Origin: Thermodesulfobacteriota bacterium
Lineage (GTDB): Bacteria > Desulfobacterota > Desulfobaccia > Desulfobaccales > 0-14-0-80-60-11
DNA: 64,000 nt
Assembly (NCBI GenBank): GCA_040757175.1
Contig: JBFLXM010000032.1
Span: forward strand, 7,448-71,447
Reading direction: 5' to 3'
Shown: in pieces, positions 22,290 through 38,112 of the stretch
How the letters are laid out: each line of letters begins with the position of its first letter
Position numbering within the stretch: the first letter of the stretch is position 1
The notes under the pieces: model-generated
Databases searched by the model: none
Seen by the model: the letters and a program-made list of their open reading frames with translations, nothing else
What the model was told of the DNA's origin: nothing
Made by a program: the position numbers and the translations under genes

Positions 22290-22298
22290 ACAGACTTA

Positions 22299-22414
22299 AC
22301 CACAGAGGCACAAAGAGCACAGAGAAACACAGAGAGATATTTTTAGCCTTGGCGGCCAGGCCGCCAAGGCAAATTTTTTCTCTGTGGCCCTTTGTGCTCT
22401 CTGTGTCTTTGTGG
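22299..22414. repeat. Composite element: CACAGAG-type heptamer arm, GC hairpin, inverted CTCTGTG-type arm
   Basis: Left arm accacagaggcacaaagagcacagagaaacacagagag. Centre gccttggcggccaggccgccaaggc. Right arm ctctgtggccctttgtgctctctgtgtctttgtgg. A sister copy lies at 37992-38112. Confidence 0.85.
22346..22379 (+). terminator. Likely secA intrinsic terminator (the central hairpin of the composite element)
   Basis: Perfect 12-bp palindrome GCCTTGGCGGCC a GGCCGCCAAGGC, followed by aaaTTTTTT. Confidence 0.6.
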
Positions 22415-22445
22415 TAAATTTTTATTTTTTCTTAAAGAGGCTGAC

Positions 22446-23627
22446 ATGCTTATTCCAGGATTTCGCTTTGCCGCGGCCATGGCCGGCATCAAGAAGGCCG
22501 GTGTTTGGGACCTGGCCTTAATGGCCGCAGAAAAACCGGTGGCCGCGGCCGCGGTCTACACCCGGAACCGGGTGAAGGCCGCGCCGGTGCTCCTGACCCG
22601 GCAGCGCCTCCGGTCCGGCCGGGCCCAGGCCATTTTGGTGAACGCGGGCAACGCCAACGCCTGCACCGGAGACCAGGGCATGGACGCGGCCCGGGAGACC
22701 ACCGGCATAGCCGCGGAATTGCTGGGGATACCCCCGGGCCTGGTCCTCCCGGCCTCCACCGGGGTCATCGGCCAGCCCCTGCCGGCGGCGAAAATCAAGG
22801 CCGCGCTCCCGGATTTGGTGGCCAATCTGAAGGCGGAGGGTTTGCCGGACGCGGCCCGGGCCATCATGACCACGGACACCCGGCCCAAGACCGCATCTTT
22901 TCAAGGAATAATCGGCGGCCGGGCATTCACCCTGGCGGGCATCGCCAAGGGCGCGGGCATGATCCACCCGGATCTGGCCACCCTCCTGGTCTTTATCTTC
23001 ACCGACGCGGCCGCCGCGCCGGCGGTCCTGAAAACCTTGCTGCGCCAGGCCAGTGCCAAAAGCTTCAACCGCATCACCGTGGATGGGGACACCTCCACCA
23101 ATGACACCATCTTGTGGCTGGCCAGCGGCCAGGCGGGGAACCCCCTAATTGCCGGGGCCGGGCCGGAGATGGCGGTCCTGGGCGCAGGGTTGAACCAGGT
23201 GATGGGTGACCTGGCCCGGCAGGTGGTGGCCGACGGCGAAGGGGCCCGGCATATCTTCCGGGTGGAGGTTAAGGGCGCGGCCACAGCCGGCGACGCCAAA
23301 AAGGCCGCGGCCACCGTGGCGCTGTCCCCCCTGGTGAAGACGGCCATGGCCGGGGAAGACGTCAATTGGGGCCGCATCATGGCCGCGTTGGGGCGCTCCG
23401 GGGCCCGGTTCGATCCGGCGCGGGTGGACATCGCCTTCGGGGTTTGTCAGGTGGTAAAAAGCGGCCTGGGGCTGGGGGCCGCAGCCGAAGCCCGGGCCCA
23501 GCAGGTGATCAAGTCCGGGGCCTTTACCCTGCATATCGACCTTCAGGCCGGGGCCTTCACCGACTACTACGACACCTGCGACTACACCGAGGACTATATC
23601 CGCATCAACGCCGATTACCGGAGTTGA
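22446..23627 (+). CDS. argJ: Bifunctional ornithine acetyltransferase / N-acetylglutamate synthase ArgJ
   Basis: MLIPGFRFAAAMAGIKK.., autoproteolytic ATLL motif region (HPDLATLLVFIFTDA), ends ..YIRINADYRS. ATG at 22446 after AAGAGG. Confidence 0.93.
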   Translation: MLIPGFRFAAAMAGIKKAGVWDLALMAAEKPVAAAAVYTRNRVKAAPVLLTRQRLRSGRAQAILVNAGNANACTGDQGMDAARETTGIAAELLGIPPGLVLPASTGVIGQPLPAAKIKAALPDLVANLKAEGLPDAARAIMTTDTRPKTASFQGIIGGRAFTLAGIAKGAGMIHPDLATLLVFIFTDAAAAPAVLKTLLRQASAKSFNRITVDGDTSTNDTILWLASGQAGNPLIAGAGPEMAVLGAGLNQVMGDLARQVVADGEGARHIFRVEVKGAATAGDAKKAAATVALSPLVKTAMAGEDVNWGRIMAALGRSGARFDPARVDIAFGVCQVVKSGLGLGAAAEARAQQVIKSGAFTLHIDLQAGAFTDYYDTCDYTEDYIRINADYRS

Positions 23628-23649
23628 GCGGCGCTTTCGAGATCATCAG

Positions 23650-23683
23650 GCGCGCCTGACCAGGACGATGGCAGGCGCGCTTT
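23650..23683 (+). terminator. Possible argJ terminator hairpin
   Basis: A 9-bp GC stem, GCGCGCCTG..CAGGCGCGC, followed by only TTT. Weak T-tract. Confidence 0.35.
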
Positions 23684-23763
23684 AATGCCTCCAAATCCTG
23701 AGTTGTCACCCGCGCTGGCAATGCTTATTCTTAGGGTTCAAAAGAACTCAGGACGATAACCTG

Positions 23764-24345
23764 ATGCGAAGATTTGTTTCTTTCCTTATCGCTGGTCTGT
23801 GCCTCCAGCTTTTTCCCGTACTTTCTTATGCGGATTTATTCCAGAAGTATGCCAAAATAATTTGGATCGACCAGGAAAACCAGGTGGGGGGAGCCTACGG
23901 GCGGGGGAGAAAGCTGTTGGAATTCCCCATCTTGACCGGTGACGATGAAACCCCGACGCCTCCGGGAACTTACGTCATTAAAAAGAAGGAACCCCATTAT
24001 TATTCCCGTAAATACAAGGTGCCCATGCCCTACTCCCTCTTTTTCGATTTAAAGGGAATGCGGGCCATTCACGAAGGAGACGTGCCCGAACCTAACGAAA
24101 AAGGAGACTGGGCCACTCACGGCTGCATCCACGTGGAAAGGCCTTACATGAAATGGTTGTACGATTGGGCGGAGCAAGGCAAGACCGTGGTGGTAGTCAA
24201 AGGACGGCGAGTGTGGGAAGAGGAGGGGAAGAAGGAAGGAGTCGAAAACAGGGAAGGAAAGGAGAGCGTAGGATCAGAACCTGAAGCCGCAGCCGAGCAC
24301 GAGTCCGAACCCGAAGCCGCACCCGAGTCCGAGTCCGAAGACTGA
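23764..24345 (+). CDS. L,D-transpeptidase (YkuD) domain protein with an acidic SEPEAA-repeat tail
   Basis: Signal peptide and a catalytic-like H..THGCIHVE motif. The C-terminus carries repeated SEPEAA(A/P)E units. Confidence 0.6.
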   Translation: MRRFVSFLIAGLCLQLFPVLSYADLFQKYAKIIWIDQENQVGGAYGRGRKLLEFPILTGDDETPTPPGTYVIKKKEPHYYSRKYKVPMPYSLFFDLKGMRAIHEGDVPEPNEKGDWATHGCIHVERPYMKWLYDWAEQGKTVVVVKGRRVWEEEGKKEGVENREGKESVGSEPEAAAEHESEPEAAPESESED

Positions 24346-24362
24346 TTCCCTCTACCGGCAGT

Positions 24363-25412
24363 TCATCGAGGGCCCAGATGCTGAATGATCATCTCCGCGA
24401 TCACCCGGTTGCCCCGTTGATTATAGTGGCCGTTCAGCAGGAAGATGTCGGTCTTTTCATTAAGATATTTCCCGGCGTCCATGATGATCATCTTCTTGAT
24501 AAAGGGGGGGTACTGTCCGGTGGAGATTTTCTCCCGCAGGGAATCCACAAATCTGCTGTCCCGGGGATCGAAGGAATTGGCCTTGAAGACCATGAGCTGC
24601 ACCCCAGAAAAGTCGAGGCCGCAATTAAGAAGCACCTCCAGGAAGGCCTCCACTTCACCTTTTTCCAGTTTATAGCGGCCTTCTTCCACCTGCTTATAAT
24701 CCCTTATCTTAAAAAGATAATTAAAATTACTGCTGATCACGTTGGCCGCGCTCCAGAGATATTTTCCGGGATAGTATTGTCTGATCTCCCGGTTCTGTTT
24801 AACCAGCTCTTCATACTTTTCCCGGGGCATGGTGGTCAGTTGATTGCCATTATTTAAGAAGCTCAGATTTTCCTCATAATCATTGTTGCAGTACTGGATT
24901 ATGAGATATTGCAACCGCTCCCTGTTGACCTTTTTGAGCAACATCATTTCCCGGGCCGTGCCATAGGAAGAACAGGAGCAATTGAGAACGGTCAGGCCCG
25001 TCCTGGCCTCAATGATCTTGGCAAAAGTTTCGTTCTGCCGCGCGCCCCAGCCCATGGCGTAGGAATCCCCCACCACCACCATCTGGGGGGAATCCAGGGC
25101 CTCTTCGCTGTCTCTCACTCCCAGGCTGTTGATGGTGTATGGGGTGGAAAATTCGTAGTCGGAGAAAAGACAGGTGCCGGGCTTTAAGGTATATCCCAGC
25201 AGGGGGTCAAATCTGGCGCATTCCGGCAAGTATTGAATACTATTCATATCAAAATTAAAATATATTCTCCGGGATATTTTGGTGATGAGACCCGGCAGTA
25301 TCTTATGGACCCCCGGATATTTTACGGTAATAAAGAAAAACAGCTCTACTATCCCTAATAAAAAAATAATAATGACTAGGTTGATGAGAATACCTTTACC
25401 CAGTTTAGACAT
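24363..25412 (-). CDS. SGNH/GDSL-like hydrolase with an N-terminal membrane anchor
   Basis: VVVGDSYAMGWG (GDS block I), an N-terminal TM (ILINLVIIIFLLGIVELFFF) and a C-terminal GHYN. Start set at the ATG at 25412. Confidence 0.55.
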   Translation of the reverse strand: MSKLGKGILINLVIIIFLLGIVELFFFITVKYPGVHKILPGLITKISRRIYFNFDMNSIQYLPECARFDPLLGYTLKPGTCLFSDYEFSTPYTINSLGVRDSEEALDSPQMVVVGDSYAMGWGARQNETFAKIIEARTGLTVLNCSCSSYGTAREMMLLKKVNRERLQYLIIQYCNNDYEENLSFLNNGNQLTTMPREKYEELVKQNREIRQYYPGKYLWSAANVISSNFNYLFKIRDYKQVEEGRYKLEKGEVEAFLEVLLNCGLDFSGVQLMVFKANSFDPRDSRFVDSLREKISTGQYPPFIKKMIIMDAGKYLNEKTDIFLLNGHYNQRGNRVIAEMIIQHLGPR

Positions 25413-25713
25413 GCCGGCCCATCCTGAAAAAATCGACGCTCCCCCGGGGCAGGGTGGGCAACCGCGTTTGGTCAGCCGCCATCGCCAAAGCCGGAGAATG
25501 CTGCCTGCGGGCAGTGAAACCGAGTCCCCTAATTCACCCATGGGCCCGCCTAATCCCACCGGGGACCCTAGCTATTTTACTTGGTGCGGCCGGTGGGGCC
25601 AAGGGAAAACCAGGGTCTGAACTTGCATCGGCGCGGATAAGTTCTTAACATCATGTCAATCACTGGAATAATCACGCAACCCGAGTACGCCATTAACCAG
25701 GGGAGGAAAAGAA

Positions 25714-26493
25714 ATGCCTTATAAGTCCGCCGCGGCCAAATTGAAGGAGGCCTTGCGCCTGCGCACCGAACCCCTGGGGATCGCTTATCTTAAGGACCTG
25801 GCCGCGTTGCCCAAATGTCGGCGGCCCTCCCAGGTCTTCGGGAAAAAGGTGACCATCTGCCAGGGAGTCACCATGGCCCGGGTTTACGGCTGGTCCGTGG
25901 GCCTGACCCGGGAGGATCTGATCTGCGTCCCCGGCATGCTGGCCTTCGGGTTTACCCCGGCCGCGGATCCGATTCTGGAATTGGCCCAACTCTTCTGCGA
26001 GGTGGGATTCAACCGGGAGATGGGGCCGGCTCTGAAAGAGGTGGAGTCCCTGCCCCGCTTCGCGCCGGAAGAGATCGCCGCCATTTATCTCTCTCCCCTG
26101 GAGCGCCTGGCCTTGGAACCGGAGGTCGTGGCCGTCTGGGGCAATCCGGCCCAGATGATGCGCCTCATTCAGGCGGCCAACTTCAGCCTGGGAGAACAAG
26201 CCAGCGGCGATTTCAGCGGCAAGGTGGAATGCGCCTCTTATCTTCTGGGCCCTTATAGAACCGGCAAGGTAATCGTGACCATTCCCGGCATGGGGGACCG
26301 CATCTTTTCCATGACCCAGGATGATGAAATGGTGACCAGCTTCCCGGCAGCCCTCTTGGAGCCCATTCTTGAGGGCCTCCAGGAAGCCGGCCGGAAAATC
26401 GGCGCCCGCTATCCCGTCACCGTGTACCAGAATTTTACCCCGGCCTTCCCTCCACCCTATGAAGAGCGGGCCAAAAAGTGGGGGATTATTTAA
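25714..26493 (+). CDS. DUF169-like (COG2043-type) protein
   Basis: 259 aa. The N-terminal ..LKEALRLRTEPLGIAYLKD.. and overall size recall the DUF169 family. Assignment from memory only. Confidence 0.45.
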   Translation: MPYKSAAAKLKEALRLRTEPLGIAYLKDLAALPKCRRPSQVFGKKVTICQGVTMARVYGWSVGLTREDLICVPGMLAFGFTPAADPILELAQLFCEVGFNREMGPALKEVESLPRFAPEEIAAIYLSPLERLALEPEVVAVWGNPAQMMRLIQAANFSLGEQASGDFSGKVECASYLLGPYRTGKVIVTIPGMGDRIFSMTQDDEMVTSFPAALLEPILEGLQEAGRKIGARYPVTVYQNFTPAFPPPYEERAKKWGII

Positions 26494-26536
26494 GGGTGAG
26501 CAGTAAACAGTGAACTTTTAAGTCAGGGAGATCGCC

Positions 26537-28315
26537 TTGTCCGCTCGGTCCAACATCTCCTTCCGTCCCATTGCTCTGCGGGTGCTCGAAGAGCGCTATC
26601 TGCGGCGGGACCCCCAGGGGCGGGTGATGGAAAATCCGGAGGAGCTGTTCCGCCGCGTGGCCCGGGGGGTGGCCGCGGCGGAGGCCCGCTATGGCGGGAC
26701 CGGGGCGGTGGCCCGCCAGACCGAGGCTTTCTATGAAGCCCTGGCCTCTTTGAAATTCCTCCCCAATACTCCCACCTTGATGAATGCGGACATCCCGGAA
26801 GGACAACTGGCCGCCTGCTTCGTCATTCCCGTGCAGGACGATATGCGCAGCATCCTGGAGGGAGTGCGGGACATGGCCCTCATCCACCAGACGGGCGGCG
26901 GCACCGGGTTCAGCTTCACCCATCTGCGGCCCCGGGGAGACCAGGTGCGCACCACCGGCCGGGTGGCCTCCGGCCCCCTGGGGTTTATGCGCATCTACGA
27001 CGTCACCACGGAGGTGGTCAAGCAGGGGGGACGCCGCCGGGGCGCCAATATGGGCATTCTCAACGTGGACCACCCCGATATCCTGGAGTTCATCAAGGTC
27101 AAGGCCGACCTGGGCATGCTCACCAATTTCAACCTGTCGGTGGCGGTCACCGATACCTTTATGGACCGGGTGGAAACAGATGGCACCTACCCCCTCGTCA
27201 ACCCCCGCACCGGCCAGGAGGTTAAGCGGCTGCCGGCCCGGGAGGTCTTCGATCTCCTCTGCCGCTACGCCCTCAAGACCGGCGACCCGGGCCTAATTTT
27301 TCTGGATGCCATCAACCGGGTCAACCCCACCCCGGATTTGGGTCCCATGGAGGCTACCAATCCCTGCGGAGAACAGCCCCTGCTCCCCTATGAATCCTGC
27401 AACCTGGGGTCCATCAATCTGGCCCGGCTGGTGCGAAATGGCGATCTGGATTGGGAGGAACTGGATCACCTGACCCGCCTGGGGGTCATCTTTCTGGATG
27501 ACGTCATCGACCGGAGCCATTATCCCCTGCCCCAGATTACCGCCATCACCCGGGGCAACCGCAAGATCGGCCTGGGGGTCATGGGCCTGGCGGACATGTT
27601 CATCCAGTTGGGGATGGCCTACGATTCCCCGGAGGCCCTGGAGCTGGGAGAAAAAGTGATGGCCCGCATCCAGGCCGCGGCCGTGGCCCAATCCGAGGCC
27701 CTGGCCCGGGAACGGGGACCCTTCCCCAACTTCCCCGGCAGCCGCTGGCACCATGAGGGCCGCCCCCCCCGGCGCAACGCCACCGTCACCACTGTGGCCC
27801 CCACCGGCACCATCAGCATCATTGCCGGCACCTCCAGCGGCATCGAGCCCCTCTTCGCGGTGGCTTACCGCCGCCGGGCCCTGGAAGGGGAGGAATTTAA
27901 CGAAGTTCATCCATTATTTTTGCAAAAATTGCGGACCCTGGGCCTCAAGGAAGAAGAGTGGCTCCCCCAGGTCCTGGGAACCGGGCGGGTGCGCCCCCTC
28001 ACTGCTTTTCCGGAGGAAATGCACCGCCTCTTTCCCACCACCTTTGAGGTGAGTGTGGACCACCAGGTGCAGATGCAGGCCGCGTTTCAACGGCACGTGG
28101 AAAACGCGGTGTCCAAGACCATCAATCTGGCCCCGGAGACTACCGTGGAGGAGGTGGCCCGGGCCTTCAAACTGGCTCACCAACTGGGGCTGAAGGGCAT
28201 CACCGTCTACCGCTACGGCTCCAAGCCCGGCCAGGTGCTGAGCCTACCCCCCCAGGCGGAGGCCCTGACTCTGGCCCACGAGTTCGCGGAAGAATGCCGG
28301 CAGTGCTCGGTGTAG
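26537..28315 (+). CDS. nrdJ: Class II (adenosylcobalamin-dependent) ribonucleotide reductase, short form
   Basis: ATNPCGEQPLLPYESCNLGSINL active-site block, TVAPTGTISIIAGTSSGIEP, KTINL. TTG start as in the track. Confidence 0.9.
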   Translation: MSARSNISFRPIALRVLEERYLRRDPQGRVMENPEELFRRVARGVAAAEARYGGTGAVARQTEAFYEALASLKFLPNTPTLMNADIPEGQLAACFVIPVQDDMRSILEGVRDMALIHQTGGGTGFSFTHLRPRGDQVRTTGRVASGPLGFMRIYDVTTEVVKQGGRRRGANMGILNVDHPDILEFIKVKADLGMLTNFNLSVAVTDTFMDRVETDGTYPLVNPRTGQEVKRLPAREVFDLLCRYALKTGDPGLIFLDAINRVNPTPDLGPMEATNPCGEQPLLPYESCNLGSINLARLVRNGDLDWEELDHLTRLGVIFLDDVIDRSHYPLPQITAITRGNRKIGLGVMGLADMFIQLGMAYDSPEALELGEKVMARIQAAAVAQSEALARERGPFPNFPGSRWHHEGRPPRRNATVTTVAPTGTISIIAGTSSGIEPLFAVAYRRRALEGEEFNEVHPLFLQKLRTLGLKEEEWLPQVLGTGRVRPLTAFPEEMHRLFPTTFEVSVDHQVQMQAAFQRHVENAVSKTINLAPETTVEEVARAFKLAHQLGLKGITVYRYGSKPGQVLSLPPQAEALTLAHEFAEECRQCSV

Positions 28316-28474
28316 AAAGAAACTCCTGAGGAGGAGAGGCTAAGGGCCATAAGCCGTTAACGCTGGATGAAACCATTTTTTAGACGTATTGTCATTTCCA
28401 TTGCGATTTTTATGAGAATAATTCAAATTATCAATAATAGGCCCTTAGAGATTTAACTAAGCAGGTGTAAAAAA

Positions 28475-28693
28475 ATGAAAAAGTCATTTACTATGGTCGT
28501 AGAACGTGATCCCGAAAGTAATTGGCTGGTGGGAGAAGTAGTGGAACTCCCCGGCTGCTATACCCAAGCGCCGGATTTGCCCACGCTGGTTGCCAATATG
28601 CAAGAAGCAATCCGCGGCTATCTGCGGACGATCGAGTTGAAGGAACCAACGGCTGCCTTTGTGGGCACCTGGCAGGTTGAGGTGGCTATTTGA
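28475..28693 (+). CDS. hicB: HicB-like (UPF0150) antitoxin
   Basis: MKKSFTMVVERDPESNWLVGEVVELPGCYTQAPDLPTLVANMQEAIRGYL is a typical short HicB pattern. Confidence 0.65.
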   Translation: MKKSFTMVVERDPESNWLVGEVVELPGCYTQAPDLPTLVANMQEAIRGYLRTIELKEPTAAFVGTWQVEVAI

Positions 28694-28800
28694 CGAAACT
28701 ACGCTTGGTTCCTTATCGGGACTTGCGCAAAATAGTTGAGAAAGTGGGCTTCCACTGGGTAAGACGTGAGGGAAGTCACAATATATGCAGCATTGGTTGA
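28690..28800 (+). pseudogene. hicA: Truncated hicA toxin remnant (36 codons)
   Basis: The TTG overlaps the hicB stop (ATTTGA). The translation LTKLRLVPYRDLRKIVEKVGFHWVRREGSHNICSIG* keeps the HicA N-terminal half up to the GSH motif, then hits a stop. The C-terminal half is missing. Confidence 0.55.
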
Positions 28801-28806
28801 CCGGCG

Positions 28807-29124
28807 CTACCGACCCGGAGTGCCGGCGGGACCGCCCCGCAGGGCTTTCGTGGGCGGCTGGTATTGGCCGGCAGGTTTTGCTCCCTGCTGGCGTCCTTTC
28901 TTCTGGGTTTGGGGGTTCCGGATTTTCTTCTGTATCTGCTGCTGCTGCCGCCCCTTCTTTTGCTGGTCCGTGGTGAAGGACTTATCGGCTTGGTGGGGGC
29001 TATCGCCATAGCGGCCCTGGGATTGCGTCCCCTGGGCCCCTGAGATTCCCGGCAAGCCCAAAACTACTGCCAGCACCACTGCCAGCAGTCCCTTAATAGA
29101 TACCCTGGCCCCGGTTTTCTGCAT
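28807..29124 (-). CDS. Hypothetical secreted Q/K-rich low-complexity protein
   Basis: Signal-peptide-like N-terminus (LLAVVLAVVLGLPGISGAQG) followed by a QQKKGRQQQQIQKK tract. It starts 19 nt downstream of the hisG stop. It could be spurious. Confidence 0.3.
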   Translation of the reverse strand: MQKTGARVSIKGLLAVVLAVVLGLPGISGAQGTQSQGRYGDSPHQADKSFTTDQQKKGRQQQQIQKKIRNPQTQKKGRQQGAKPAGQYQPPTKALRGGPAGTPGR

Positions 29125-29143
29125 TTGCCGAGATTCCCCCTGG

Positions 29144-30019
29144 CTAGATTACTTTGTGCAAAGGATACTCCACGATGCCCTGGGCCCCAATTCGGATGAG
29201 GCGGGGGATGAGAACCCGCACCTCGGATTGGTTCACCACCACTTCCACGGAGAACCAGTCCGTCTCGTATAGAGAGGCGATGGTGGGGGCCAGGAGGCTG
29301 GGGAGGAGGTCGACGATCTCTTTCAATTGCTTCTCCGGGATATTCATTTTCAGGCCCACCATCTTTTCCGCCCGGAGGGCCCCCAGGAGCAGCACCGCGA
29401 TATTCTCCATCTTCTCCCGCTTGACGGGATTGTTTTGCCAGACCTGGGGGTTGGCGATAAACTGCGTATTGCTCTGGAAGAGTTCGTGGATGATCTTCAG
29501 GCCGTGGGCTTTAATGGTGCTGCCGGTCTCCGTCACTTCCACCACCGCGTCCACCAGCCCCGCGGCTACCTTGGCTTCCGTGGCTCCCCAGGAAAATTCC
29601 ACCTTCACCGGGATTTGCCGCTGTGCGAAAAAGCGGCGGGTGTAGTTCACCAGTTCGGTGGCGATCTTTTTGTCGGCCAGGTCTCTAATAGACCGCACCT
29701 CGGAGTCCGCGGGCACCGCCACCACCCAGCGCACCGGGTTCTGGCTGGACTTGGAGTACATGAGATCGGCCACCACTTCCACCTGGGAGTCGTTTTCCAT
29801 GGTCCAATCCAGGCCCGTGAGGCCGCAATCCAGGGTGCCGTCGGCCACATAGCGGCTCATCTCCTGGGCCCGGCACATGGAGCAGGTGATCTCCGGGTCG
29901 TCGATGTCCGGGAAATAGCTGCGCCCGTTGACCTTGATGTGCCAGCCGGAACGGCGGAAAAGTTCGATGGTGGCCTTTTCCAGGCTGCCCTTGGGAATAC
30001 CCAGTCGTAATTTATCCAC
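29144..30019 (-). CDS. hisG: ATP phosphoribosyltransferase, long form
   Basis: [21 protein letters not shown].. and a C-terminal regulatory domain. GTG at 30019 lies 9 nt after AGGAGG and overlaps the hisI stop by 8 nt. Confidence 0.9.
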
Positions 30020-30474: not shown

Positions 30475-30852
30475 ATGGGAAAGGTCATCCCTTACGGCGA
30501 TCTGGCCCGGCAGCACCGCCTCAATTTATTGGCGCATAAACGCCGGGAATATCGGGAACGGGAAGACTACCTGGCCGGCCTCAGAAAATTGCTTTTTCAA
30601 GTGGAGGGCCAGATGCGCCAGGCGGAGATGCGGCAGTTGCAAGTCTTCCATGACTTAGCCGAGAGCCTCAAAATTACCCTGGAGTTTCCCAGCCTGGGGG
30701 ATCGGGTGGCCCTGGAGGAGTTTTTCGCCACCGACCCCTTCCTGCAGATTCTCAAGGAATTTCTGGCGGAGCGCCTCAGCCCCGATGAATGTCTGCAAAG
30801 CATCACGGATCTGCGCCAGAAATTGACTGCCCCGGAGGGAGAGGGGGCATAA
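30475..30852 (+). CDS. Hypothetical protein (125 aa)
   Basis: The ATG at 30475 is preceded by GGGAGGG. Helical, charged sequence with no family recognised. Confidence 0.45.
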   Translation: MGKVIPYGDLARQHRLNLLAHKRREYREREDYLAGLRKLLFQVEGQMRQAEMRQLQVFHDLAESLKITLEFPSLGDRVALEEFFATDPFLQILKEFLAERLSPDECLQSITDLRQKLTAPEGEGA

Positions 30853-30967
30853 AAAAAACTGGCCGGGTGGGGGAGGAACCCGGCCAGTCGGTGAAAGGAG
30901 AAAATGGTATATGAACTTTGATTAAGGGGGGGATGTGGGTACCTTAATAAGGGTCATATACTCGCTT
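30851..30967 (-). ncRNA. Candidate sigma54-dependent small RNA, copy 1 (about 115 nt)
   Basis: On the minus strand, the region downstream of the sigma54-like promoter forms a long hairpin. It has an outer stem GTATATGA/TCATATAC, an inner stem ATTAAGG/CCTTAAT and a C-rich apical loop TACCCACATCCCCC. A CU-rich stretch (TTCTCCTTTC) follows, then the terminator CTGGCCGGGT..ACCCGGCCAG plus T8. The 5' end is inferred, not observed. Confidence 0.55.
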
Positions 30968-30976
30968 TATTAAATA

Positions 30977-30992: not shown

Positions 30993-31163
30993 AACTGCGA
31001 CTACTTAATATATTCTGCAATAACAATATGTTATCCAGCAATTAAGCCCGTAGCGAATCCTTTTCAGTTCAATATTTTTTACCGTAGCCAGGTGGATAAT
31101 TTTTCTTCGTAGCTTAATTGATTAATATTACTACCAATAACAAGTTTACAATTATTTTTCCCC

Positions 31164-31280
31164 AAAAAAAAACTGGCCAGGAGGGGGAGGGACCCGGCCA
31201 GTCTCTAGTAGGAGAAATTGGTACATGAACTCCGATTAAGGGGGGGATGTGGGTACCTTAATTAGGGTCACATACTCACC
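31164..31280 (-). ncRNA. Candidate sigma54-dependent small RNA, copy 2 (about 115 nt)
   Basis: Paralogue of copy 1, with roughly 80 percent identity by eye. A 29-nt core is identical (gattaagggggggatgtgggtaccttaat on the plus strand). Substitutions in the outer stem keep pairing through G-U wobbles. Terminator CTGGCCAGG..CCCGGCCAG plus T9. Confidence 0.55.
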
Positions 31281-31289
31281 AATTAAGAA

Positions 31290-31305
31290 TGCAATAACCC
31301 TGCCA
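31290..31305 (-). promoter_or_regulatory. Sigma54 (-24/-12) promoter of sRNA copy 2
   Basis: The minus strand reads TGGCAGGGTTATTGCA against the consensus TGGCACG-N4-TTGCW, with one mismatch. Confidence 0.65.
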
Positions 31306-31490
31306 AAGAGATGAAATTAAAAATACCATTGATTACAGCATGTTGCCTTTTACTAACTTTGACCTCAGTCGTGCTCGGTTCAATATTTTTTACTAGAACT
31401 TCCCCCAATAGACAAATTTCTGTAATCACAGTTTGGCGGGGGGCTACGGGAAGGGACCGGATTCCCCCTCCTCCTGCCTCAGCAGGTGCC

Positions 31491-33455
31491 TCAACGGCTC
31501 AGAAGCAGGTGGCCTGGGGGCCGGACTTCCACCTGGAAGCCCGGTAGAATCAAGAGGGTAGCGTAATCCTCCACCACCAGGGCCGGCCCGGAGAAAGTTT
31601 CTCCGGGTTGCAGTTCCCGGCGTTCATAAAAAGGCAGGGTGGCCGGGCCCTCCGGCAGCCACACCGTGCCCTCAGGCGGCAGGAAAGAGCGGCGGGAGGA
31701 GGGGGAGGTCATCCCGGGCAGGGCCGCCGTGGACGCGGGAGCCTGGAAGTTTAGGCGCAGGCTCAGGACTTCCACTTCCCGGTGGGGAAAATCATGACCA
31801 TAGAGGTGCCGGTGGCGGCCATGGAAGGTGGGCAGGAAATCCGGGCGGCAAGGCACGGTCAGGGTGTCGCTCTGGCCCCGGTAGCGCAACTCCAGCTCTC
31901 CGGACATGGTCAGCCCTGCAACCGGCAACCCTTCCCGTTCCATCTCCGCCAACCCTTTCATTTTAAGAGACTGGACCTCCTGCTTAAGTCTGTCCCAGGT
32001 CAGCTTGGGGCCGGATAAGAGCAGGGTCCGGGTCCAATCCCGTCGGAATCCCGCCAGAGCCATGCCCAGGGCGGAAAGCACCCCGGCCTGGGCCGGGACC
32101 AGGATGCGGCGCAGGTCCAACTCCAGGGCCAACTCACATACTTGCAAACCGGCAGCCCCCCCGAAACAGCAGAGGGTGAAATCCCGGGGGTCAAAGCCCC
32201 GCTCCAGGCTCACGGCCCGCAGGGCCTTGGCCATGTGGCTGTTGGCCACCCGGATGATGCCCAGGGCCAACTCTTCCGGGGCCACCCCAAAAACGGACCC
32301 CAGCCGGGTCAGGGCCCGGGCCGTGGCCTCAGGGTCGAGGGGCATGCGGCCGCCCAAAAAGTTTTCCGGCCGCAGTCTGCCCAAAAAAAGATGGGCGTCG
32401 GTTACCGTGACTTCGTCCCCCCGGCCGTAACAGACCGGCCCGGGGTCGGCTCCCGCACTCCGGGGCCCCACCCGCAGCGCCCCGCCCCGGTCCTGAAAGG
32501 CAATGGAGCCGCCCCCCGCGCCCACGGTATGGATGTCCATCACCGGAATACCCAGGGGGTAGCCCTCCAGGAGATATTCCCGGGTAAAGGGAATCTCCCC
32601 GGCCAGGAGGGCCACGTCCGTGGAAGTCCCCCCCATGTCCAGGGTGAGGAGATTGGGTATGCCCAGTTCCTGCCCCAGGCGCCAGGCCCCATAGACCCCC
32701 CCGGCGGGACCCGAAAGGATGGTCTGCAGCCCCCAGGCCCCGGCCTGGGACGCGGGCAGAAAACCGCCGTTCGACTGCTGGATGAAAAGCGACACCCCGG
32801 GCAGCCGCCGGGACCAGTCCGCCAGATATTGTTGGATTACCGGCCCCAGATAGGCGTTCAAGACCGTGGCCGCGCTGCGTTCATACTCCCGGACTTCCGG
32901 CAAGATGCAGTTGGAGAGGGACAAAGGGATTCCCAAGTCCGCCAGGGCCGCGGCCAGGCGCTCTTCATGACGCGGGTAGGCATAGGCGTGGAGCAGGCAG
33001 ACGGCCACGGCTTCCGGGGCCAGTTCCCGGACCCGGGCCTTTACCCGGGAGATTTCTGCATTAGTCAAAGAGATGAGCGCCGCGCCGTCAGCCCCCAGGC
33101 GCTCCTGAACCCCCAGAACCCGCTCCCGGGGCAGGATCTCCGGGGGCTTTTCCACCATCAGGTTGAAGAGCTCCGGCCGGGTCTGGCGGCCGATGAACAA
33201 AACATCCTCAAACCCGGCGGTGGTGAGCAGGGCCACCCTGGCCCCTTTTCTCTCCAAAAAGGCGTTGGTGCCCCGGGTGGTGCCGTGGACCACCTCCACC
33301 CCGGCCAGGCCCTGGGGCCGCATCTCCGCCACCCCTGAGAGAATGGCTTGCAAGGGGTCTACCGGCGTGGAAGGCACTTTATGCACCCACCCCTCCCCTT
33401 CCTCCAGGAAGACGAAGTCAGTGAAGGTGCCGCCGCTGTCAATGCCGAGTCGCAT
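31491..33455 (-). CDS. Hydantoinase/oxoprolinase family protein (HyuA-like)
   Basis: MRLGIDSGGTFTDFVFL.. N-terminal ASKHA motif, DMGGTSTDV and HTVGAGGGSIA blocks. Start set at the ATG at 33455; the track extension runs into a REP element. Confidence 0.85.
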   Translation of the reverse strand: MRLGIDSGGTFTDFVFLEEGEGWVHKVPSTPVDPLQAILSGVAEMRPQGLAGVEVVHGTTRGTNAFLERKGARVALLTTAGFEDVLFIGRQTRPELFNLMVEKPPEILPRERVLGVQERLGADGAALISLTNAEISRVKARVRELAPEAVAVCLLHAYAYPRHEERLAAALADLGIPLSLSNCILPEVREYERSAATVLNAYLGPVIQQYLADWSRRLPGVSLFIQQSNGGFLPASQAGAWGLQTILSGPAGGVYGAWRLGQELGIPNLLTLDMGGTSTDVALLAGEIPFTREYLLEGYPLGIPVMDIHTVGAGGGSIAFQDRGGALRVGPRSAGADPGPVCYGRGDEVTVTDAHLFLGRLRPENFLGGRMPLDPEATARALTRLGSVFGVAPEELALGIIRVANSHMAKALRAVSLERGFDPRDFTLCCFGGAAGLQVCELALELDLRRILVPAQAGVLSALGMALAGFRRDWTRTLLLSGPKLTWDRLKQEVQSLKMKGLAEMEREGLPVAGLTMSGELELRYRGQSDTLTVPCRPDFLPTFHGRHRHLYGHDFPHREVEVLSLRLNFQAPASTAALPGMTSPSSRRSFLPPEGTVWLPEGPATLPFYERRELQPGETFSGPALVVEDYATLLILPGFQVEVRPPGHLLLSR

Positions 33456-33481
33456 AATTTTTAAGTGAGCGATGAGCGGAT

Positions 33482-33545
33482 GTAGGGTGGGCACGGCCCA
33501 CCAGCAGACTGCATTCTTAAAAAGGTGGGCCATGCCCACCCTACA
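33482..33545. repeat. Inverted pair of REP hairpins (GTAGGGTGGGCA..GCCCACC family)
   Basis: gtagggtgggcacggcccacc .. ggtgggccatgcccaccctaca. Family members are also at 52881-52903 and 55211-55233. Confidence 0.8.
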
Positions 33546-33578
33546 TCAATCTTTGAACCTTGACCTTTTCAAGTCAGT

Positions 33579-33591
33579 AATTATTATAATT
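33579..33591. promoter_or_regulatory. Possible Zur/Fur-type operator
   Basis: Perfect AT-rich palindrome AATTAT-t-ATAATT, 34 nt upstream of the zur start. Functional assignment is inference only. Confidence 0.3.
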
Positions 33592-33624
33592 GCAACTAAG
33601 TTGATTTTGGGATATTTCCTTGCC

Positions 33625-34055
33625 ATGAGCGATCTTTGTGATTTTCCCCAGTTGTTGGCCGGGCAGGGAGTGAAGGCCACGGCCTTGCGCCTGGCCGTCC
33701 TGGAAGTCTTGGGGGCTGCGCCCCGGGCCTTGCGGGCCCAGGAAATCATGGAGGCGATCCGGGCCCGCCGCCGGGTGAATAAGGTGACCGTTTACCGCAT
33801 CCTGGACGATTTCACCCGCCGGGGCATTCTCCGGCGTCTGGCCGTGGAGGACCGGGCCTCCCTCTATGAGCTGGCCTGCGAACACCACCCGCCCCACCCC
33901 CATTTCCAGTGCCGGGAGTGCGGCCAGGTGCAGTGCCTGGAGCCCGCGCCCCTGGAGCGCATGTGGGCGGAACTTAAAGGCCCCCTGGGCAATCGCGCCG
34001 ATCGCATCGAGGTCCGGGTAGCCGGGGTGTGCCATAAGTGCCGGGAGACGAGTTG

Positions 34056-34056
<1 letters not shown>
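33625..34056 (+). CDS. zur: Fur-family metalloregulator (Zur by context)
   Basis: ..LRLAVLEVLGAAPRALRAQEIMEAI..VNKVTVYRILDDFTRRGIL.. winged helix plus HFQCRECGQVQC..CHKC metal sites. It heads the znu operon. Confidence 0.8.
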
Positions 34057-35075
<1,019 letters not shown>

Positions 35076-35082
35076 GGGTTCC

Positions 35083-35859
35083 GTGGCGCAATTAGCAGTG
35101 GACATTCATGACCTCCTGGTCTCCTATAACGGCGTGCCCGCGCTGGAGGAGATCAATTTGGAGATCGAGACCGGCAAATACGTGGGGGTCCTGGGCCCCA
35201 ACGGCGCGGGCAAGAGCACCCTGCTGAAGGTGATCCTGGGCCTGATCCCGCCCACCCGGGGCCGGGTCCTGGTGTTCGGGGAAGCCCCCCAAAAATTGCG
35301 GCGCCGGGGGGAAGTGCTGGGATATCTCCCCCAGCGGCCCCTGGGAAACCCCCATTTCCCGGTGACGGTGCTGGACATGGTGCTCATGGGCCGCTACGGC
35401 CGGGTGGGCCTCCTGCGCCGGCCCGGGTCTCAGGATCGGGAGATCGCCAGGAAAAACCTGGAGCGGGTGGGCATCCCCCATCTGGCGAAGAGGGCCATCG
35501 GCGAGATCTCCGGAGGGGAGCAGCAGCGGGTCTTTATCGCCCGGGCCCTATGCGTAGAGCCCCGGCTCCTGGTCTTGGACGAGCCCACCGTCTCCTTAGA
35601 CGCCTGCGCCCAGGACGATGTTTTTGAACTGGTAAACAGGCTCAAGGAAGAGTTGAACCTCACGGTGCTCATGGTCTCCCACGACATCGGCGGCGTGGCC
35701 CGCCACGTGGACGACATCGTCTGTATCAACCGCCGCATCCATGTGCATCAGGCCCCCCCCATCGGCCGCCTGGGTCTGGAGAGCGCGTTCGGCTGCAGCG
35801 TGGAGTACCTCTTCCACGGAGAGATTCCGCACCGGGTGGTGAAGGTGCAAGATGACTGA
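35083..35859 (+). CDS. znuC: Zinc ABC transporter ATP-binding protein
   Basis: Walker A GPNGAGKST, signature SGGEQQRV, Walker B LLVLDEP. Confidence 0.9.
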   Translation: MAQLAVDIHDLLVSYNGVPALEEINLEIETGKYVGVLGPNGAGKSTLLKVILGLIPPTRGRVLVFGEAPQKLRRRGEVLGYLPQRPLGNPHFPVTVLDMVLMGRYGRVGLLRRPGSQDREIARKNLERVGIPHLAKRAIGEISGGEQQRVFIARALCVEPRLLVLDEPTVSLDACAQDDVFELVNRLKEELNLTVLMVSHDIGGVARHVDDIVCINRRIHVHQAPPIGRLGLESAFGCSVEYLFHGEIPHRVVKVQDD

Positions 35860-36670
35860 ACTGCTGTCCCTGGGCTTCCTGCAGCGGGCGCTGTTGGCGG
35901 GGATTATGGTGAGCCTGCTGTGCGGGGTGCTCTCCGTCTTCGTGATCCTGCGGCGCATGGCCTTCATCGGCGTGGGCATCTCCCATTCCGCGTTCGGGGG
36001 GGTGGCCCTGGGCTTTCTGCTGGCCGTTGATCCCCTGTGGACCGGGGTCGGCTTTTCGGTGTTGGTGGCCCTGGCTATTGAGTGGGCCCAAACCCACAGC
36101 CGGGTGGAGGAGGATACCGCCATCGGCATCTTTTTCGCGGCCTCCATGGCCCTGGGGCTGGTTTTTCTCCACCTCTCCCGGACCTATAACGTGGACGTCT
36201 TCGGCTTTCTCTTCGGCAACATCCTGGCCATCGGCCCCCAACAGGTGATGGAAATTTTTTATGTTACCGCCGCGGTCCTGGCCATCACCCTGGCCTTTTA
36301 CAAAGAACTGGTTTTTATAAGCTTTGATGAAGAAATGGCCTGGGTCAGCGGGGTGCCGGTCCGGGCTTTGCGCTATCTGTTCCTGGTGATGCTGGCCCTG
36401 GTGGTCATCATCTCCATCTACCTGGTGGGCATCGTCCTGGTCTCGGCCCTGCTGGTGATCCCCGGGGCCACCGCCCAGAACCTGACCGGGCATATCCGCA
36501 GCATGATCATCGCCTCCACCGCGGTGGCCGTGGGCTGCGTGGCCGGCGGGCTCTGGCTCTCCTACCTCCTGGATTTTCCCTCCGGGGCCACCATCGTGCT
36601 GCTGCTGGCGCTGCTCTACCTCCTAACCACCGCCGCGCCCTGGGTCCGTTCCCACCTGGTGAAGGCTTGA
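35852..36670 (+). CDS. znuB: Zinc ABC transporter permease
   Basis: 272-aa polytopic membrane protein of the ABC-3 type. It overlaps the znuC stop by 8 nt. Confidence 0.88.
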   Translation: MTELLSLGFLQRALLAGIMVSLLCGVLSVFVILRRMAFIGVGISHSAFGGVALGFLLAVDPLWTGVGFSVLVALAIEWAQTHSRVEEDTAIGIFFAASMALGLVFLHLSRTYNVDVFGFLFGNILAIGPQQVMEIFYVTAAVLAITLAFYKELVFISFDEEMAWVSGVPVRALRYLFLVMLALVVIISIYLVGIVLVSALLVIPGATAQNLTGHIRSMIIASTAVAVGCVAGGLWLSYLLDFPSGATIVLLLALLYLLTTAAPWVRSHLVKA

Positions 36671-36769
36671 CCCGGGCCTTTTCCCGGCACCGATATTGTC
36701 AACCTCATTATCAGTGATTAGCTTTTTGACAAATCTAATTTTTGTTAAAGGTGTATAAGGAGGAGGACT

Positions 36770-37294
36770 GTGAAATATCGCGCGCTAATAGCCTTAATGG
36801 CTTTCCTGCTATTACTCGTTTGGGGATGCGGAGGACCCACGCCGGAGAAGGCCAAGGCCACCCTGGTCAACGCCCAGGGCCAGAAGGTGGGCGAAGCCCA
36901 ATTAGTGGAGACCCCCCATGGCGTCAAAATCACCCTCAAGGTGGAAAATCTGCCCCCGGGAGTGCATGCCTTCCATATCCATGAAAAAGGGGATTGCCAT
37001 TGCCCGGATTTTATGAGCAGTGGGGGCCACTTCAATCCCTTCGGTAAAAAGCATGGCCTGAAAAATCAGGAGGGACCCCACGCCGGCGACCTTCCCAACC
37101 TGGTGGTGGGAGAGGACGGCAAAGAGACTCTGGAGGTCATAGCCTCCCGGGTGACCCTGAAGCCGGGGAAGAATTCCCTGCTGCAACCCGGGGGCACCTC
37201 TCTGATGATCCATGCCAACCCCGATGATTACCTGACCGATCCCGCGGGCAATGCCGGACCCCGCATCGCTTGCGGGACGATTATTAAGCAGTAA
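36770..37294 (+). CDS. sodC: Periplasmic Cu,Zn superoxide dismutase
   Basis: Signal/lipobox (LLLVWGCG), HAFHIHEKGDC, GGHFNP and GPHAGDLPNL copper/zinc ligand blocks. Confidence 0.9.
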   Translation: MKYRALIALMAFLLLLVWGCGGPTPEKAKATLVNAQGQKVGEAQLVETPHGVKITLKVENLPPGVHAFHIHEKGDCHCPDFMSSGGHFNPFGKKHGLKNQEGPHAGDLPNLVVGEDGKETLEVIASRVTLKPGKNSLLQPGGTSLMIHANPDDYLTDPAGNAGPRIACGTIIKQ

Positions 37295-37372
37295 AAGAGA
37301 CGACGGGGGAAGATTAAGACAAGGGCGGGATAGACATGGCGACATAAATAATTGCGCCTCTCCAAATATCTT

Positions 37373-37517
37373 CGAATAAGAGAATAATCTCCTTATCCTC
37401 TTATTCCCTCCCCCTTGAGGTGGGAGGGTTAGGGTGGGGGTGGCGTCTTTGGGGCCGGGTGAGCGCTAAAAATCGCCACCCTCCCCCCAACCCCCTCCTC
37501 CCCTCACAGGGAGGGGG
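37373..37517. repeat. G/C-tract inverted repeat with nested hairpins
   Basis: GAATAAGAG..CTCTTATTC hairpin. Then arm ccctcccccttgaggtgggagggttagggtgggggtggcg and, after about 30 nt, its imperfect inverse cgccaccctccccccaaccccctcctcccctcacagggaggggg. Confidence 0.65.
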
Positions 37518-37664
37518 AGATTGTCAGTCCAGTCCCCGGGAATATAATTAGAATATCGAAAATAAATGACGCTGCCTGTAAGAGCTCTCCGGGGGCACAA
37601 CAAGGGCTCCTCCTATAACGTGCGCCCGGAAAATGATATAGTTTTTTTCGTTTCCCAAGAACCT

Positions 37665-37985
37665 ATGGAGAAGCAGCCCCCCATACCCCGGGAAACCGCC
37701 ACCACCTCCCGCCAGGCCATCAGGGAGGTGCTCCTGGATCAACCCCGCTCCGCCCTGGAAATCTCCCAACTCCTCGCCCTCCCCGAAAAGGAAGTGCTGG
37801 CTCACCTAAACCACCTCGCCCGGGCCCCGGGGCCGGGCCTCCATTTCCAAATAACCCCGGCGGCCTGCAAATCCTGCGGTTTTATCTTTCGGAAACGGGA
37901 ACGCCTCACCAGCCCCTCCCGCTGCCCGGTTTGCCGCCACGAATCCATCCGCCGCCCGCGCTTTGCCTTGGCAAAGAAAAAATAA
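37665..37985 (+). CDS. Small HTH plus C-terminal zinc-ribbon transcriptional regulator-like protein
   Basis: 106 aa. ArsR-like wHTH segment (SRQAIREVLLDQPRSALEISQLLALPEKEVLAHLNHL) and CKSCG..CPVCRH. Confidence 0.55.
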   Translation: MEKQPPIPRETATTSRQAIREVLLDQPRSALEISQLLALPEKEVLAHLNHLARAPGPGLHFQITPAACKSCGFIFRKRERLTSPSRCPVCRHESIRRPRFALAKKK

Positions 37986-37991
37986 AGACTT

Positions 37992-38112
37992 ACCACGGAG
38001 ACACAGGGGACACAGGGATTCACAGAGGATAAAAAATTGAGGTCCGGCGGTTCACCGCCGGACCTCAAATATTTTCTCTGTGGCCCTCTGTGCTCTCTGT
38101 GCCTCTGTGGTG
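37992..38112. repeat. Composite element, second copy: CACAGAG-type arm, GC hairpin, CTCTGTG-type arm
   Basis: Left arm accacggagacacaggggacacagggattcacagagg. Centre gaggtccggcggttcaccgccggacctc. The right arm ctctgtggccctctgtgctctctgtgcctctgtggtg is about 90 percent identical to the right arm at 22379-22414. It lies between convergent genes. Confidence 0.85.

Follow-up and report, generated by a model that had tools for sequence, protein, structure and literature searches.

We analysed two elements in a 64,000-nt stretch of the Thermodesulfobacteriota contig JBFLXM010000032.1 (the whole stretch is hereafter the window), one in the gap between secA and argJ (copy 1) and one in the gap between a zinc-ribbon gene and glmS (copy 2), and found each to be an imperfect palindrome of about 115 nt just past a stop codon, in which two repeat-bearing arms enclose a GC-rich hairpin. 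Judged by their sequences, both are members of an extragenic repeat family that is catalogued but unexplained. The reading that we favour, and to which we give an even chance, is that the arms are a self-perpetuating extragenic module of gene 3′-ends, akin to repetitive extragenic palindromic (REP) sequences and bacterial interspersed mosaic elements (BIMEs), and that here an inverted pair of arms extends a terminator into a hairpin of ~115 nt. This reading draws on the observed anatomy of the elements, the pairing and covariation of their arms, terminator motifs that fit the gene context, conservation at orthologous sites, a cross-phylum family and a bias in location.

Two long hairpins with common arms and unrelated cores

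Both elements are present where a preliminary description of the window had placed them, within 1-2 nt, and consist of the following features:

22300-22337, + strand: copy 1 left (F) arm, CCACAGAG-G-CACAAAG-AG-CACAGAG-AAA-CACAGAG-AGA
22346-22370, + strand: copy 1 central GC hairpin, GCCTTGGCGGC-CAG-GCCGCCAAGGC, stem of 11 bp and loop of 3 nt
22371-22379, + strand: copy 1 tract AAATTTTTT, with T6 at 22374-22379
22380-22414, + strand: copy 1 right (R) arm, CTCTGTG-GCC-CTTTGTG-CT-CTCTGTG-T-CTTTGTGG, reverse complement of the left arm
22415-22445, + strand: T-rich tail TAAATTTTTATTTTTTCTTAAAGAGGCTGAC, from the R arm to the argJ ATG (22446), kept in 9 orthologous junctions
37993-38029, + strand: copy 2 left (F) arm, CCACGGAG-A-CACAGGG-GA-CACAGGG-ATT-CACAGAG-GA
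38037-38068, both strands: copy 2 central hairpin, TTGAGGTCCGGCGG-TTCA-CCGCCGGACCTCAA, preceded by an A-run and followed by a T-run
38075-38110, + strand: copy 2 right (R) arm, TCTCTGTG-GCC-CTCTGTG-CT-CTCTGTG-C-CTCTGTGG

Copy 1 is flanked by co-directional genes, both on the + strand: its F arm, which holds four CACRRAG units at spacings of 8, 9 and 10 nt and not a single T, begins 10 nt past the secA stop codon (22287-22289), and the downstream gene product was confirmed as ArgJ. The central stem has 9 GC among its 11 pairs and can be extended by UUU/AAA; the "perfect 12-bp" hairpin described previously has to be shortened accordingly, as two 12-mers would leave a loop of 1 nt where we find 3 nt. 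Copy 2 is flanked by convergent genes, its F arm beginning 7 nt past the stop (37983-37985) of a gene for a PF0610-like zinc-ribbon protein (Pfam) and its R arm ending 9 nt short of the stop of glmS (38120-38122, - strand); its stem comprises 14 bp including TT/AA, with 10 GC pairs and a loop of 4 nt.

The arms are made of 7-mer units (CACRRAG / CTYYGTG) placed at 8, 9 and 10 nt counting from the outer end, so that the "heptamer repeats" noted earlier hold as regards the units and fail as regards a strict tandem, period-7 array. The right arms follow CTCTGTG-GCC-CTYTGTG-CT-CTCTGTG-Y-CTYTGTGG and are identical between copies at 33/36 positions (92%), close to the 90 percent estimated by eye; the left arms agree at 26/37 positions (70%), with A/G transitions making up 9 of the 11 differences. 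Ahead of the right arm stands TTTTTT in copy 1 and TATTTT in copy 2, and the arms end in GTGGTAAA and GTGGTGAA. Against shuffled sequence, a 27-nt right-arm pattern matched the window twice and a degenerate 26-nt arm pattern four times, with 0.00 matches expected in each case. The central hairpins, as previously recognized, are unrelated in sequence between the copies while a hairpin is kept in both, and the arms do form the conserved, family-defining part, present in hundreds of other genomes.

The complementarity of the arms was absent from the preliminary description. Left and right arms are reverse complements of each other, and each element is therefore a single long hairpin; since the copy 1 F arm lacks T and the right arms lack A, an arm is unable to pair with itself. 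Folding of the full unit as RNA gave -81 and -84 kcal/mol on the + strand for copies 1 and 2 (z = -15.2 and -12.9) and -70.5 and -76 kcal/mol on the - strand, both copies folding far better than shuffled sequence.

Cores predicted as intrinsic terminators

Using a consensus terminator scan, the copy 1 core was called as an intrinsic terminator on the + strand only (11 pairs, 9 GC, then AAATTTTTT); for the copy 2 core, the call was made on both strands (14 pairs, 10 GC, a T-rich tail on each strand). This one-directional and bidirectional scoring fits the co-directional and convergent gene contexts, respectively. Furthermore, the linker left of the hairpin is T-rich in every secA-family orthologue and thus offers no U-tract for the opposite strand, and the glmS-family copies are A-rich on one side of the hairpin and T-rich on the other. 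The term "modular terminator cassette", one of three identities proposed beforehand, is consequently a fair name for the two window copies, with their terminator-scoring cores and a directionality that fits the flanking genes. Cores in other genomes are mostly short and unstructured, with 13/55 significantly structured, which makes the enclosed terminator a Desulfobaccales-type feature (seen also in L031, L149, L157 and L209) rather than a family-wide one. In this Desulfobaccales lineage, the core is thus a predicted local intrinsic terminator.

Bidirectional intrinsic (Rho-independent) terminators resemble both the copy 2 core, with its A-run and T-run flanks, and the copy 1 core, with a T-run only; unlike the window elements, however, ordinary terminators are not wrapped in complementary repeat arms of about 37 bp. 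Searching the window against Rfam at the gathering threshold, tRNA-Ser alone passed and neither element matched; at E<=10 the elements matched generic miRNA-precursor hairpin models alone, far below threshold.

The T-rich tail beyond copy 1 may serve as a second U-tract or as a promoter. It carries AAGAGG as the Shine-Dalgarno sequence of argJ, and TGGTAAATT looks by inspection like an extended -10 box; a consensus scan found no sigma-70-like promoter between the copy 1 terminator and argJ.

Conservation, turnover and pairing at orthologous loci

To follow both sites through time, we compared syntenic relatives (L240-L250), the close ones being Desulfobaccales. In L240, L241, L243, L244 and L245, secA is followed by the element with its GCCTTGGCGG hairpin and with arms orthologous to those of copy 1, the core being kept at this site down to 89% SecA identity. 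In L246 and L247 (85-86% SecA identity), copies with the copy 1 hairpin sit upstream of argJ, and in both the hairpin bears compensatory changes. Similarly, the glmS 3′ element recurs with the same hairpin in L249 and L250 (89-90% GlmS identity), with a compensatory G-C to U-A change.

Parts of the element come and go. The L240 left arm has lost one unit via a 10-nt deletion, L241b has arms without a hairpin between them, L246a and L247a retain the hairpin, T-run and right arm only, and L242 keeps half a hairpin and the right arm beside a different inserted gene. An unrelated GC-rich hairpin, GGGGAGGG...CCCTCCCC, replaces the element in L248 (at glmS) and in L242, L246 and L247 (at secA). In more distant relatives, secA and argJ are separated by a gyrI-like gene that is flanked by an element on either side; this gene is missing in the window lineage, and its loss by deletion between the two flanking elements is plausible. 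Collectively, these comparisons indicate that the elements are old at both sites, modular, recombination-prone and replaceable by other hairpins.

Pairing was assessed in an alignment (A1) of 12 orthologous or paralogous elements, in which 90.4% of cells pair in the nested structure (arm helices 83-91%) compared with 40-58% for slid partners. A1 had a covariation score of 0.236 versus 0.155 in shuffles, of which 0/500 reached 0.236. AU-to-CG and GC-to-AU double changes occur in the arms; both-sides changes in the central helix largely reflect the two unrelated core families. On the window's + strand, G-U pairs outnumber A-C mismatches 40:16 in this clade, and 8/10 secA-family copies fold better in the sense direction. 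Across 30 co-directional elements of other phyla, the transcribed strand shows no such preference (47:41 G-U versus A-C). Pairing is maintained, and the level at which this happens may be RNA, DNA or copying between arms.

The secA-argJ junction was also observed to be a hotspot of gene gain and loss whose breakpoints lie at or inside repeat elements. The gyrI-like gene occurs in L241, L245, L246 and L247 and an unrelated 205-aa open reading frame (ORF) in L242, and neither is found in the junctions of the window, L240, L243 and L244. We rejected the 205-aa L242 gene as a GyrI-like homologue, since it has no homology to the gyrI-like gene of the relatives. The junctions compared were:

window 22290-22445
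L241 12509-13413
L242 12506-13447
L245 6506-7438
L246 6509-7477
L247 6503-7739

The right-arm outer end TGGTAAATT stands 6-7 nt before the gyrI-like ATG in four relatives, with no Shine-Dalgarno sequence, a geometry that on inspection is that of a leaderless mRNA promoter. Before argJ, TGGTAAATT is followed by a T-rich tract and AAGAGG, and here the sigma-70 consensus scan found nothing. In L246 (7478-8657) and L247 (7740-8730), argJ is called as 2-3 consecutive ORFs, probably owing to frameshifts from assembly errors rather than to pseudogenes. Sites of TGGTAAATT are:

L246 6690-6717
L247 6765-6794
L241 12620-12646
L245 6655-6675
window 22411-22448

A second hairpin family, GGGGAGGGC...GCCCTCCCC followed by a further CCCCTCCC run, takes the place of the CACAGAG element at 3′ sites in relatives. 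It resembles the intrastrand-triplex BoxC/PIT/TMECO motif of E. coli, CCCTCNCCC-N-GGGNGAGGG-N-GGGNGAGGG (PMC4666352). Its positions are:

L242 12510-12575
L246 6505-6570
L247 6510-6575 and 6650-6705
L248 4835-4882
L249 2755-2990

A family of arms across phyla

A degenerate pattern matching all four window arms was scanned against one genome per species and a four-unit pattern against metagenome contigs, returning at least 119 loci (chance expectation about 1 by our own estimate) and at least 120 loci, respectively; the family-wide counts below come from the genome and metagenome matches listed. Hosts among the listed genome matches are in the majority Acidobacteriota, joined by Planctomycetota, Verrucomicrobiota, Bacteroidota, Chlamydiae, Clostridia and Gemmatimonadota, and further by Geomonas and Trichlorobacter (Geobacterales), Desulfobacca and Zetaproteobacteria. 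BLAST located copies in the cultured Bacteroides ovatus, where the element fills the gmd-fcl intercistronic gap, in B. finegoldii and in Gemmatirosa kalamazoonensis; arms were absent from 5,426 E. coli genomes. Metagenome-assembled genomes (MAGs) of archaea (Ca. Ethanoperedens, Methanosarcinales) also carry arms. One of these loci, L051, encodes a geranylgeranyl-reductase-type protein and a GAD/GatB-domain protein that we read as GatE-like, gene content that makes an archaeal origin plausible, and L004 encodes an ATPase of a mainly archaeal Pfam family; the family is probably present in some archaea.

The family consensus is a T-rich stretch followed by CTYYGTG-nnn-CTYYGTG-nn-CTYYGTG-(n-CTYYGTG)-G-T[GT]A, a module of about 27-36 bp with 3-4 units and a family-wide outer end TTCACCAC / GTGGTGAA, also written TTMACCAC. 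Arms are arranged as F..R hairpins (cores of 3-202 nt), back-to-back R..F, in tandem (L045, L095) or solo, the last being about half of cases. Over 80 inverted pairs, Watson-Crick pairing reached 81%. Many arms lie 0-20 nt from a stop codon, and among intergenic arms 34 are between convergent genes versus 11 between divergent genes (gene calls here being crude, from longest ORFs). Gaps between co-directional genes are common sites as well. This bias towards 3′-ends and away from divergent gaps is the REP/BIME pattern and argues against a promoter or operator role. Solo arms show no bias in orientation relative to transcription (27 versus 23).

Units within an arm vary in concert. In 68/137 four-unit arms, where 2.7 would be expected, all units agree at the three free Y positions, and mean unit identity over the 137 arms is 0.70 versus 0.25 expected. 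Four unit dialects dominate (CTCTGTG, CTTCGTG, CTCCGTG and CTTTGTG), and the partner arm follows the same dialect. As the spacers differ in both length and sequence, simple slippage explains uniform units poorly, and the pattern suggests either that every unit is read alike by some factor or that arms descended from few master variants.

Two other ideas about the arms fared less well. As a general module, "solo arm follows hairpin" showed a weak effect (mean -7.95 versus -6.6 kcal/mol, strong hairpins 21 versus 16). The outer end was rejected as a DnaA box, TTATNCACA: exact matches numbered 0/353 arms, the outer 9-mer being mostly TTCACCACA or TTAACCACA, and box position 4 is A in nearly all arms where the consensus has T.

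Relation to known repeats

A literature search by sequence string found nothing relevant in main texts, its sole match being the supplement of the G. bemidjiensis paper (PMC2996986). That paper (Aklujkar et al. 2010, Table S6) lists "nonanucleotide repeats", TTT[WCCTCTGTGR0-1Y0-1]nGTGAG, in 68 copies (Gbem_R9001-R9068); of 42 sites in G. bemidjiensis, 28 are 3′/5′, 11 are 3′/3′ and 3 are 5′/5′, and several lie inside the nuo operon (PMC2996986). For G. metallireducens, an earlier paper describes "class 2 predicted global regulator binding sites", three tandem copies of TCTCCGTS[Y] that occur as pairs, one on each strand, with a variable distance between them, and there Aklujkar et al. 2009 suggested IHF/HU binding for class 1-3 sites (PMC2700814). 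These Geobacter repeats have the same unit as the window arms (CCTCTGTG or CTCCGTG), the same inner T-run and the same GTGR outer end, and share with the arm family at large an occurrence as solo copies or inverted pairs at variable distance, mostly in 3′/5′ and 3′/3′ intergenic positions. Conversely, the window arms repeat CCTCTGTG-type units in tandem every 9-10 nt or so, have a T-run on one side and a GTGR-type end on the other, and start 7-10 nt past stops. Unlike the Geobacter description, the window copies have four units at 8/9/10 nt and enclose an intrinsic terminator; in the text consulted, the Geobacter papers list the repeats as multicopy with function unassigned and describe no central terminator, arm covariation or wider spread. 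In the literature searched we found no report of the cross-phylum spread of the family.

The REP, BIME and REPIN (REP doublet forming hairpins) sequences of Enterobacteria and Pseudomonas are extragenic modules of about 35 nt that occur solo, as inverted-pair hairpins and in clusters. They lie after stop codons and between convergent genes, are rare in promoter regions, come in lineage-specific variants and are co-transcribed, affecting termination and mRNA stability. The REP unit is a small palindrome with a GTAG/CGTC tag that is tied to the REP-associated tyrosine transposase (RAYT), and its sequences are species-specific. The arms described here are likewise extragenic, 3′-biased and found in inverted pairs forming long hairpins. 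They differ from REPs in that each arm is a direct 7-mer array, not self-complementary; in that the outer end is TTMACCAC and not a GTAG/CGTC tag; in that no RAYT gene was seen in the 64 kb of this genome or among the neighbours in 239 listed loci; and in that arms are nearly identical across phyla whereas REPs are species-specific.

Correia elements of Neisseria and other miniature inverted-repeat transposable elements (MITEs) are intergenic, 100-150 nt long, with conserved inverted ends and a variable middle; the Correia hairpin is co-transcribed, is an RNase III substrate and can carry terminator or promoter activity, and the target-site duplications of Correia elements are TA, their conserved interior including an IHF site. 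The window elements are intergenic units within the same size range, also with inverted ends and a variable middle, but they and the arm family differ in lacking a target-site duplication, having unrelated interiors and often occurring as solo arms. Short tandemly repeated repetitive (STRR) heptamers of Cyanobacteria and the TAACTGA repeats of Beggiatoaceae, Cyanobacteria and Bacteroidetes (MacGregor 2015, PMC4679880) are, like the arms, short intergenic 7-mer arrays distributed patchily across phyla. Unlike the arms, they repeat directly with a strict period of 7 and mostly lie immediately before start codons (PMC4679880), whereas the units of CACAGAG arms are spaced at 8-10 nt and the arms have defined outer ends and often form inverted pairs.

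Mobility and alternative explanations

Target-site duplications, which the preliminary description had suggested looking for beside the arms, gave no signal at offsets 0-8, with 71/79 inverted pairs free of any abutting direct repeat; the window copies are flanked by TTAA/TAAA and CTTA/TGAA. Clustering 1,414 ORFs from 239 listed loci all-against-all revealed no linked transposase or recurrent neighbour, the clusters being common families (ABC transporters, short-chain dehydrogenases/reductases, sigma-54 activators, kinases). In viral contigs the arm pattern is rare (9 stretches), with three fecal "bacteriophage" records, and a plasmid collection gave 15 records (13 Bacteroides and two Gemmatirosa megaplasmids), each of them typed as non-mobilizable. 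On these grounds we rejected phage or plasmid carriage. The arms (35-38 nt) do constitute terminal inverted repeats, around internal sequences that are unrelated between the window copies. Elsewhere, L126 holds two copies of a whole element with 93% identity across the arms and a 107-nt core, and one subfamily has a common TTGTACA core.

Under the REP/BIME-like reading, RNA polymerase leaving secA, or either convergent gene in the case of copy 2, would meet the GC hairpin and U-run and mostly stop. Read-through transcripts would include the second arm and could fold the whole ~115-nt stem, with about 37 near-perfect pairs per side, which may act as a further barrier, as a block to 3′-exonucleases or as a substrate for a double-strand RNase (RNase III type). 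The outcome would be to insulate neighbouring genes and to set relative mRNA stability, as with REP and Correia hairpins. The arms themselves would persist and spread by duplication and recombination, not by cut-and-paste transposition, and are probably read unit by unit via a sequence-specific factor.

Several points weigh against this reading. We infer all of its termination efficiency, RNA processing and trans-acting factor. With about half of arms solo and 13/55 cores structured, the "terminator clamp" may be a local co-option, and solo arms elsewhere cannot form the big hairpin at all. The lack of a transcribed-strand preference across phyla (47 versus 41) weakens the case for general RNA-level selection, and copies inside operons, such as nuo in G. 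bemidjiensis, make strong termination by arms alone unlikely. The features that define REPs, namely a self-palindromic unit, the GTAG/CGTC tag and a RAYT gene, were not seen, and a passive repeat model does not explain near-identical arms across phyla and archaeal MAGs.

The preliminary description had also raised a MITE-like element and a structured RNA with a variable specificity loop. A true MITE, in which the arms would be terminal inverted repeats with several transposase-binding sites and the unit would be mobilised in trans, seems unlikely to us even though the geometry is of that kind, with conserved outer ends TTCACCAC...GTGGTGAA, and though the near-identical L126 pair, the TTGTACA-core subfamily, the tandem and nested arrangements (L045, L095) and the lineage-specific concerted unit variants, expected under co-evolution with a binding protein, would all fit it. 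In the classical sense it is left unsupported by the missing target-site duplications, by the want of a transposase or recurrent neighbour protein among the listed loci, by the abundance of solo arms (about half), by unrelated cores in the two window copies, by stability at orthologous sites over 85-93% SecA identity and by rarity in viral contigs. A dedicated cis-acting RNA element, either an RNase III site or an intercistronic stabiliser with the core as its variable loop, is less probable still. It would account for the + strand folding 8-10 kcal/mol better in both window copies, the sense-favoured folding of the secA family, the 40:16 excess of G-U pairs in this clade and the intercistronic placement within operons (glmU-glmS-type gaps, gmd-fcl in B. 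ovatus, nuo in G. bemidjiensis), but the co-directional elements of other phyla show no strand preference, solo arms cannot fold, no Rfam family matches, cores elsewhere are mostly short and unstructured, and unrelated hairpins are tolerated as replacements at orthologous sites.

About on a par with the MITE, and so again improbable in our estimate, is a DNA-binding array, that is, phased sites for a nucleoid-associated protein or global regulator (the IHF/HU idea of Aklujkar et al.) in which the hairpin is incidental. Three to four identical 7-mers at roughly helical spacing (8-10 bp) invite such an explanation, as do concerted units that are each apparently read alike, solo arms without orientation bias, solo right arms that stay intact where the partner is missing (L246a, L247a) and G. 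metallireducens sites paired at variable distance (PMC2700814). The arms, however, avoid divergent, promoter-bearing gaps and hug stop codons, they are spread over phyla and archaeal MAGs that have no such protein in common, inverted arms covary so as to keep pairing, and the outer end is no DnaA box. Chance or independent slippage without common ancestry is scarcely credible: short-period repeats are indeed abundant in the window, yet zero matches are expected by chance, and the unit type, spacing, outer ends and flanks recur in both copies, in the orthologues and in hundreds of loci across phyla.

Beyond these, we entertain somewhat more readily, though still only tentatively, that the arms are recognition arrays of an undiscovered, horizontally spreading DNA/RNA binding or recombination system of many bacterial phyla and some archaea. 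By analogy, this may resemble the REP/RAYT partnership with phased 7-mers replacing the palindrome, and dialects that are uniform within and between paired arms are what co-evolution with a protein reading every unit alike would be expected to produce. The strict period-7, STRR-like arrays of the window could be the same phenomenon in other dialects.

Short repeat arrays of intergenic DNA, among them STRRs, TAACTGA repeats and the Geobacter "multicopy sequences", have to our knowledge been listed for decades with no mechanism attached. The element described here does not represent a new kind of system, and locally it probably plays an ordinary part; what is unexplained is the cross-phylum near-identity of a 27-36-nt phased module and the dialect uniformity within arms, along with the origin and function of the arms. 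The present analysis places a Desulfobaccales element in a family whose members are nearly identical from gut Bacteroides through soil Acidobacteriota to MAGs of archaea of the anaerobic methanotrophic (ANME) type, and adds that units vary in concert, that pairing is kept by covariation and that the arms are tightly associated with gene 3′-ends. The elements are unannotated, and their occurrence inside operons and at gene gain and loss hotspots, with predicted nested terminators, matters for operon prediction and MAG annotation. Cultured hosts that carry the family include G. bemidjiensis, B. ovatus and Gemmatirosa.

Other repeats and features of the window

Strict period-7 tandem arrays fill the intergenic DNA of the window, with units GTTTTCC, GGAACCT/AGTTCCA, AGTGGTC/ACTGACC, AGGGGTC/CTGACCC and TCGTTTT/ACGAAAA; an autocorrelation scan of the window found 8 regions of period 7 and none of periods 5, 6, 8 or 9. 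Some of the arrays invert around a short core or around a whole gene (M16 peptidase, 10452-11780; nucleotidyltransferase, 51821-52141). Similar arrays include cyanobacterial STRRs, the TAACTGA repeats and, in G. metallireducens, arrays of MTYCTGA and GGACCGG. The positions of the period-7 arrays in the window are:

7759-7782
9255-9283
10407-10432
11785-11863
34084-34115
39965-40048
50149-50180
50831-50848
51760-51784
52159-52202
52906-52935
54913-55052
55766-55797

The array at 39965-40048, in the glmU-glmS gap, forms a hairpin with arms (CAGTGRY)4 / (ACTGAYC)4 that ends at the glmS Shine-Dalgarno sequence. The orthologous gap holds a hairpin with other heptamer arms, TAAGTRA / YACTTAT, in L250 (2840-2990), GGGGAGGG-type hairpins in L249 (2755-2990) and an inserted VanY gene in L248 (2088-3000); the architecture is kept and the sequence turns over.

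An AT-rich, gene-free gap contains direct copies of about 113 nt at 30851-30963 and 31165-31277, 88% identical. On the - strand, each unit contains a TTAAGG...CCCCCCCTTAA stem-loop and ends in a GC hairpin, ACTGGCCGGGT...ACCCGGCCAGT, then T8. No Rfam match was found for these units, which have the look of two paralogous small RNA genes in tandem. Three copies of another small palindrome, the third such family (GTTCCCAAGC-N4-GCTTGGGAAC), lie at 10238-10267, 42654-42683 and 55341-55370.

Towards the end of the window, a tRNA-like 3′ fragment, TGGCGGAGGGGGTGGGATTCGAACCCACGCC (- strand sense, not called by ARAGORN), lies about 700 bp from tRNA-Ser (55062-55154) and abuts one further feature:

55842-57101, - strand: phage-type integrase gene (Pfam PF00589)

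Beyond 57.7 kb, the consensus units of tandem repeats are AT-rich by eye, and the segments 55800-57101 and 57300-64000 are probably the edge of an integrated island.

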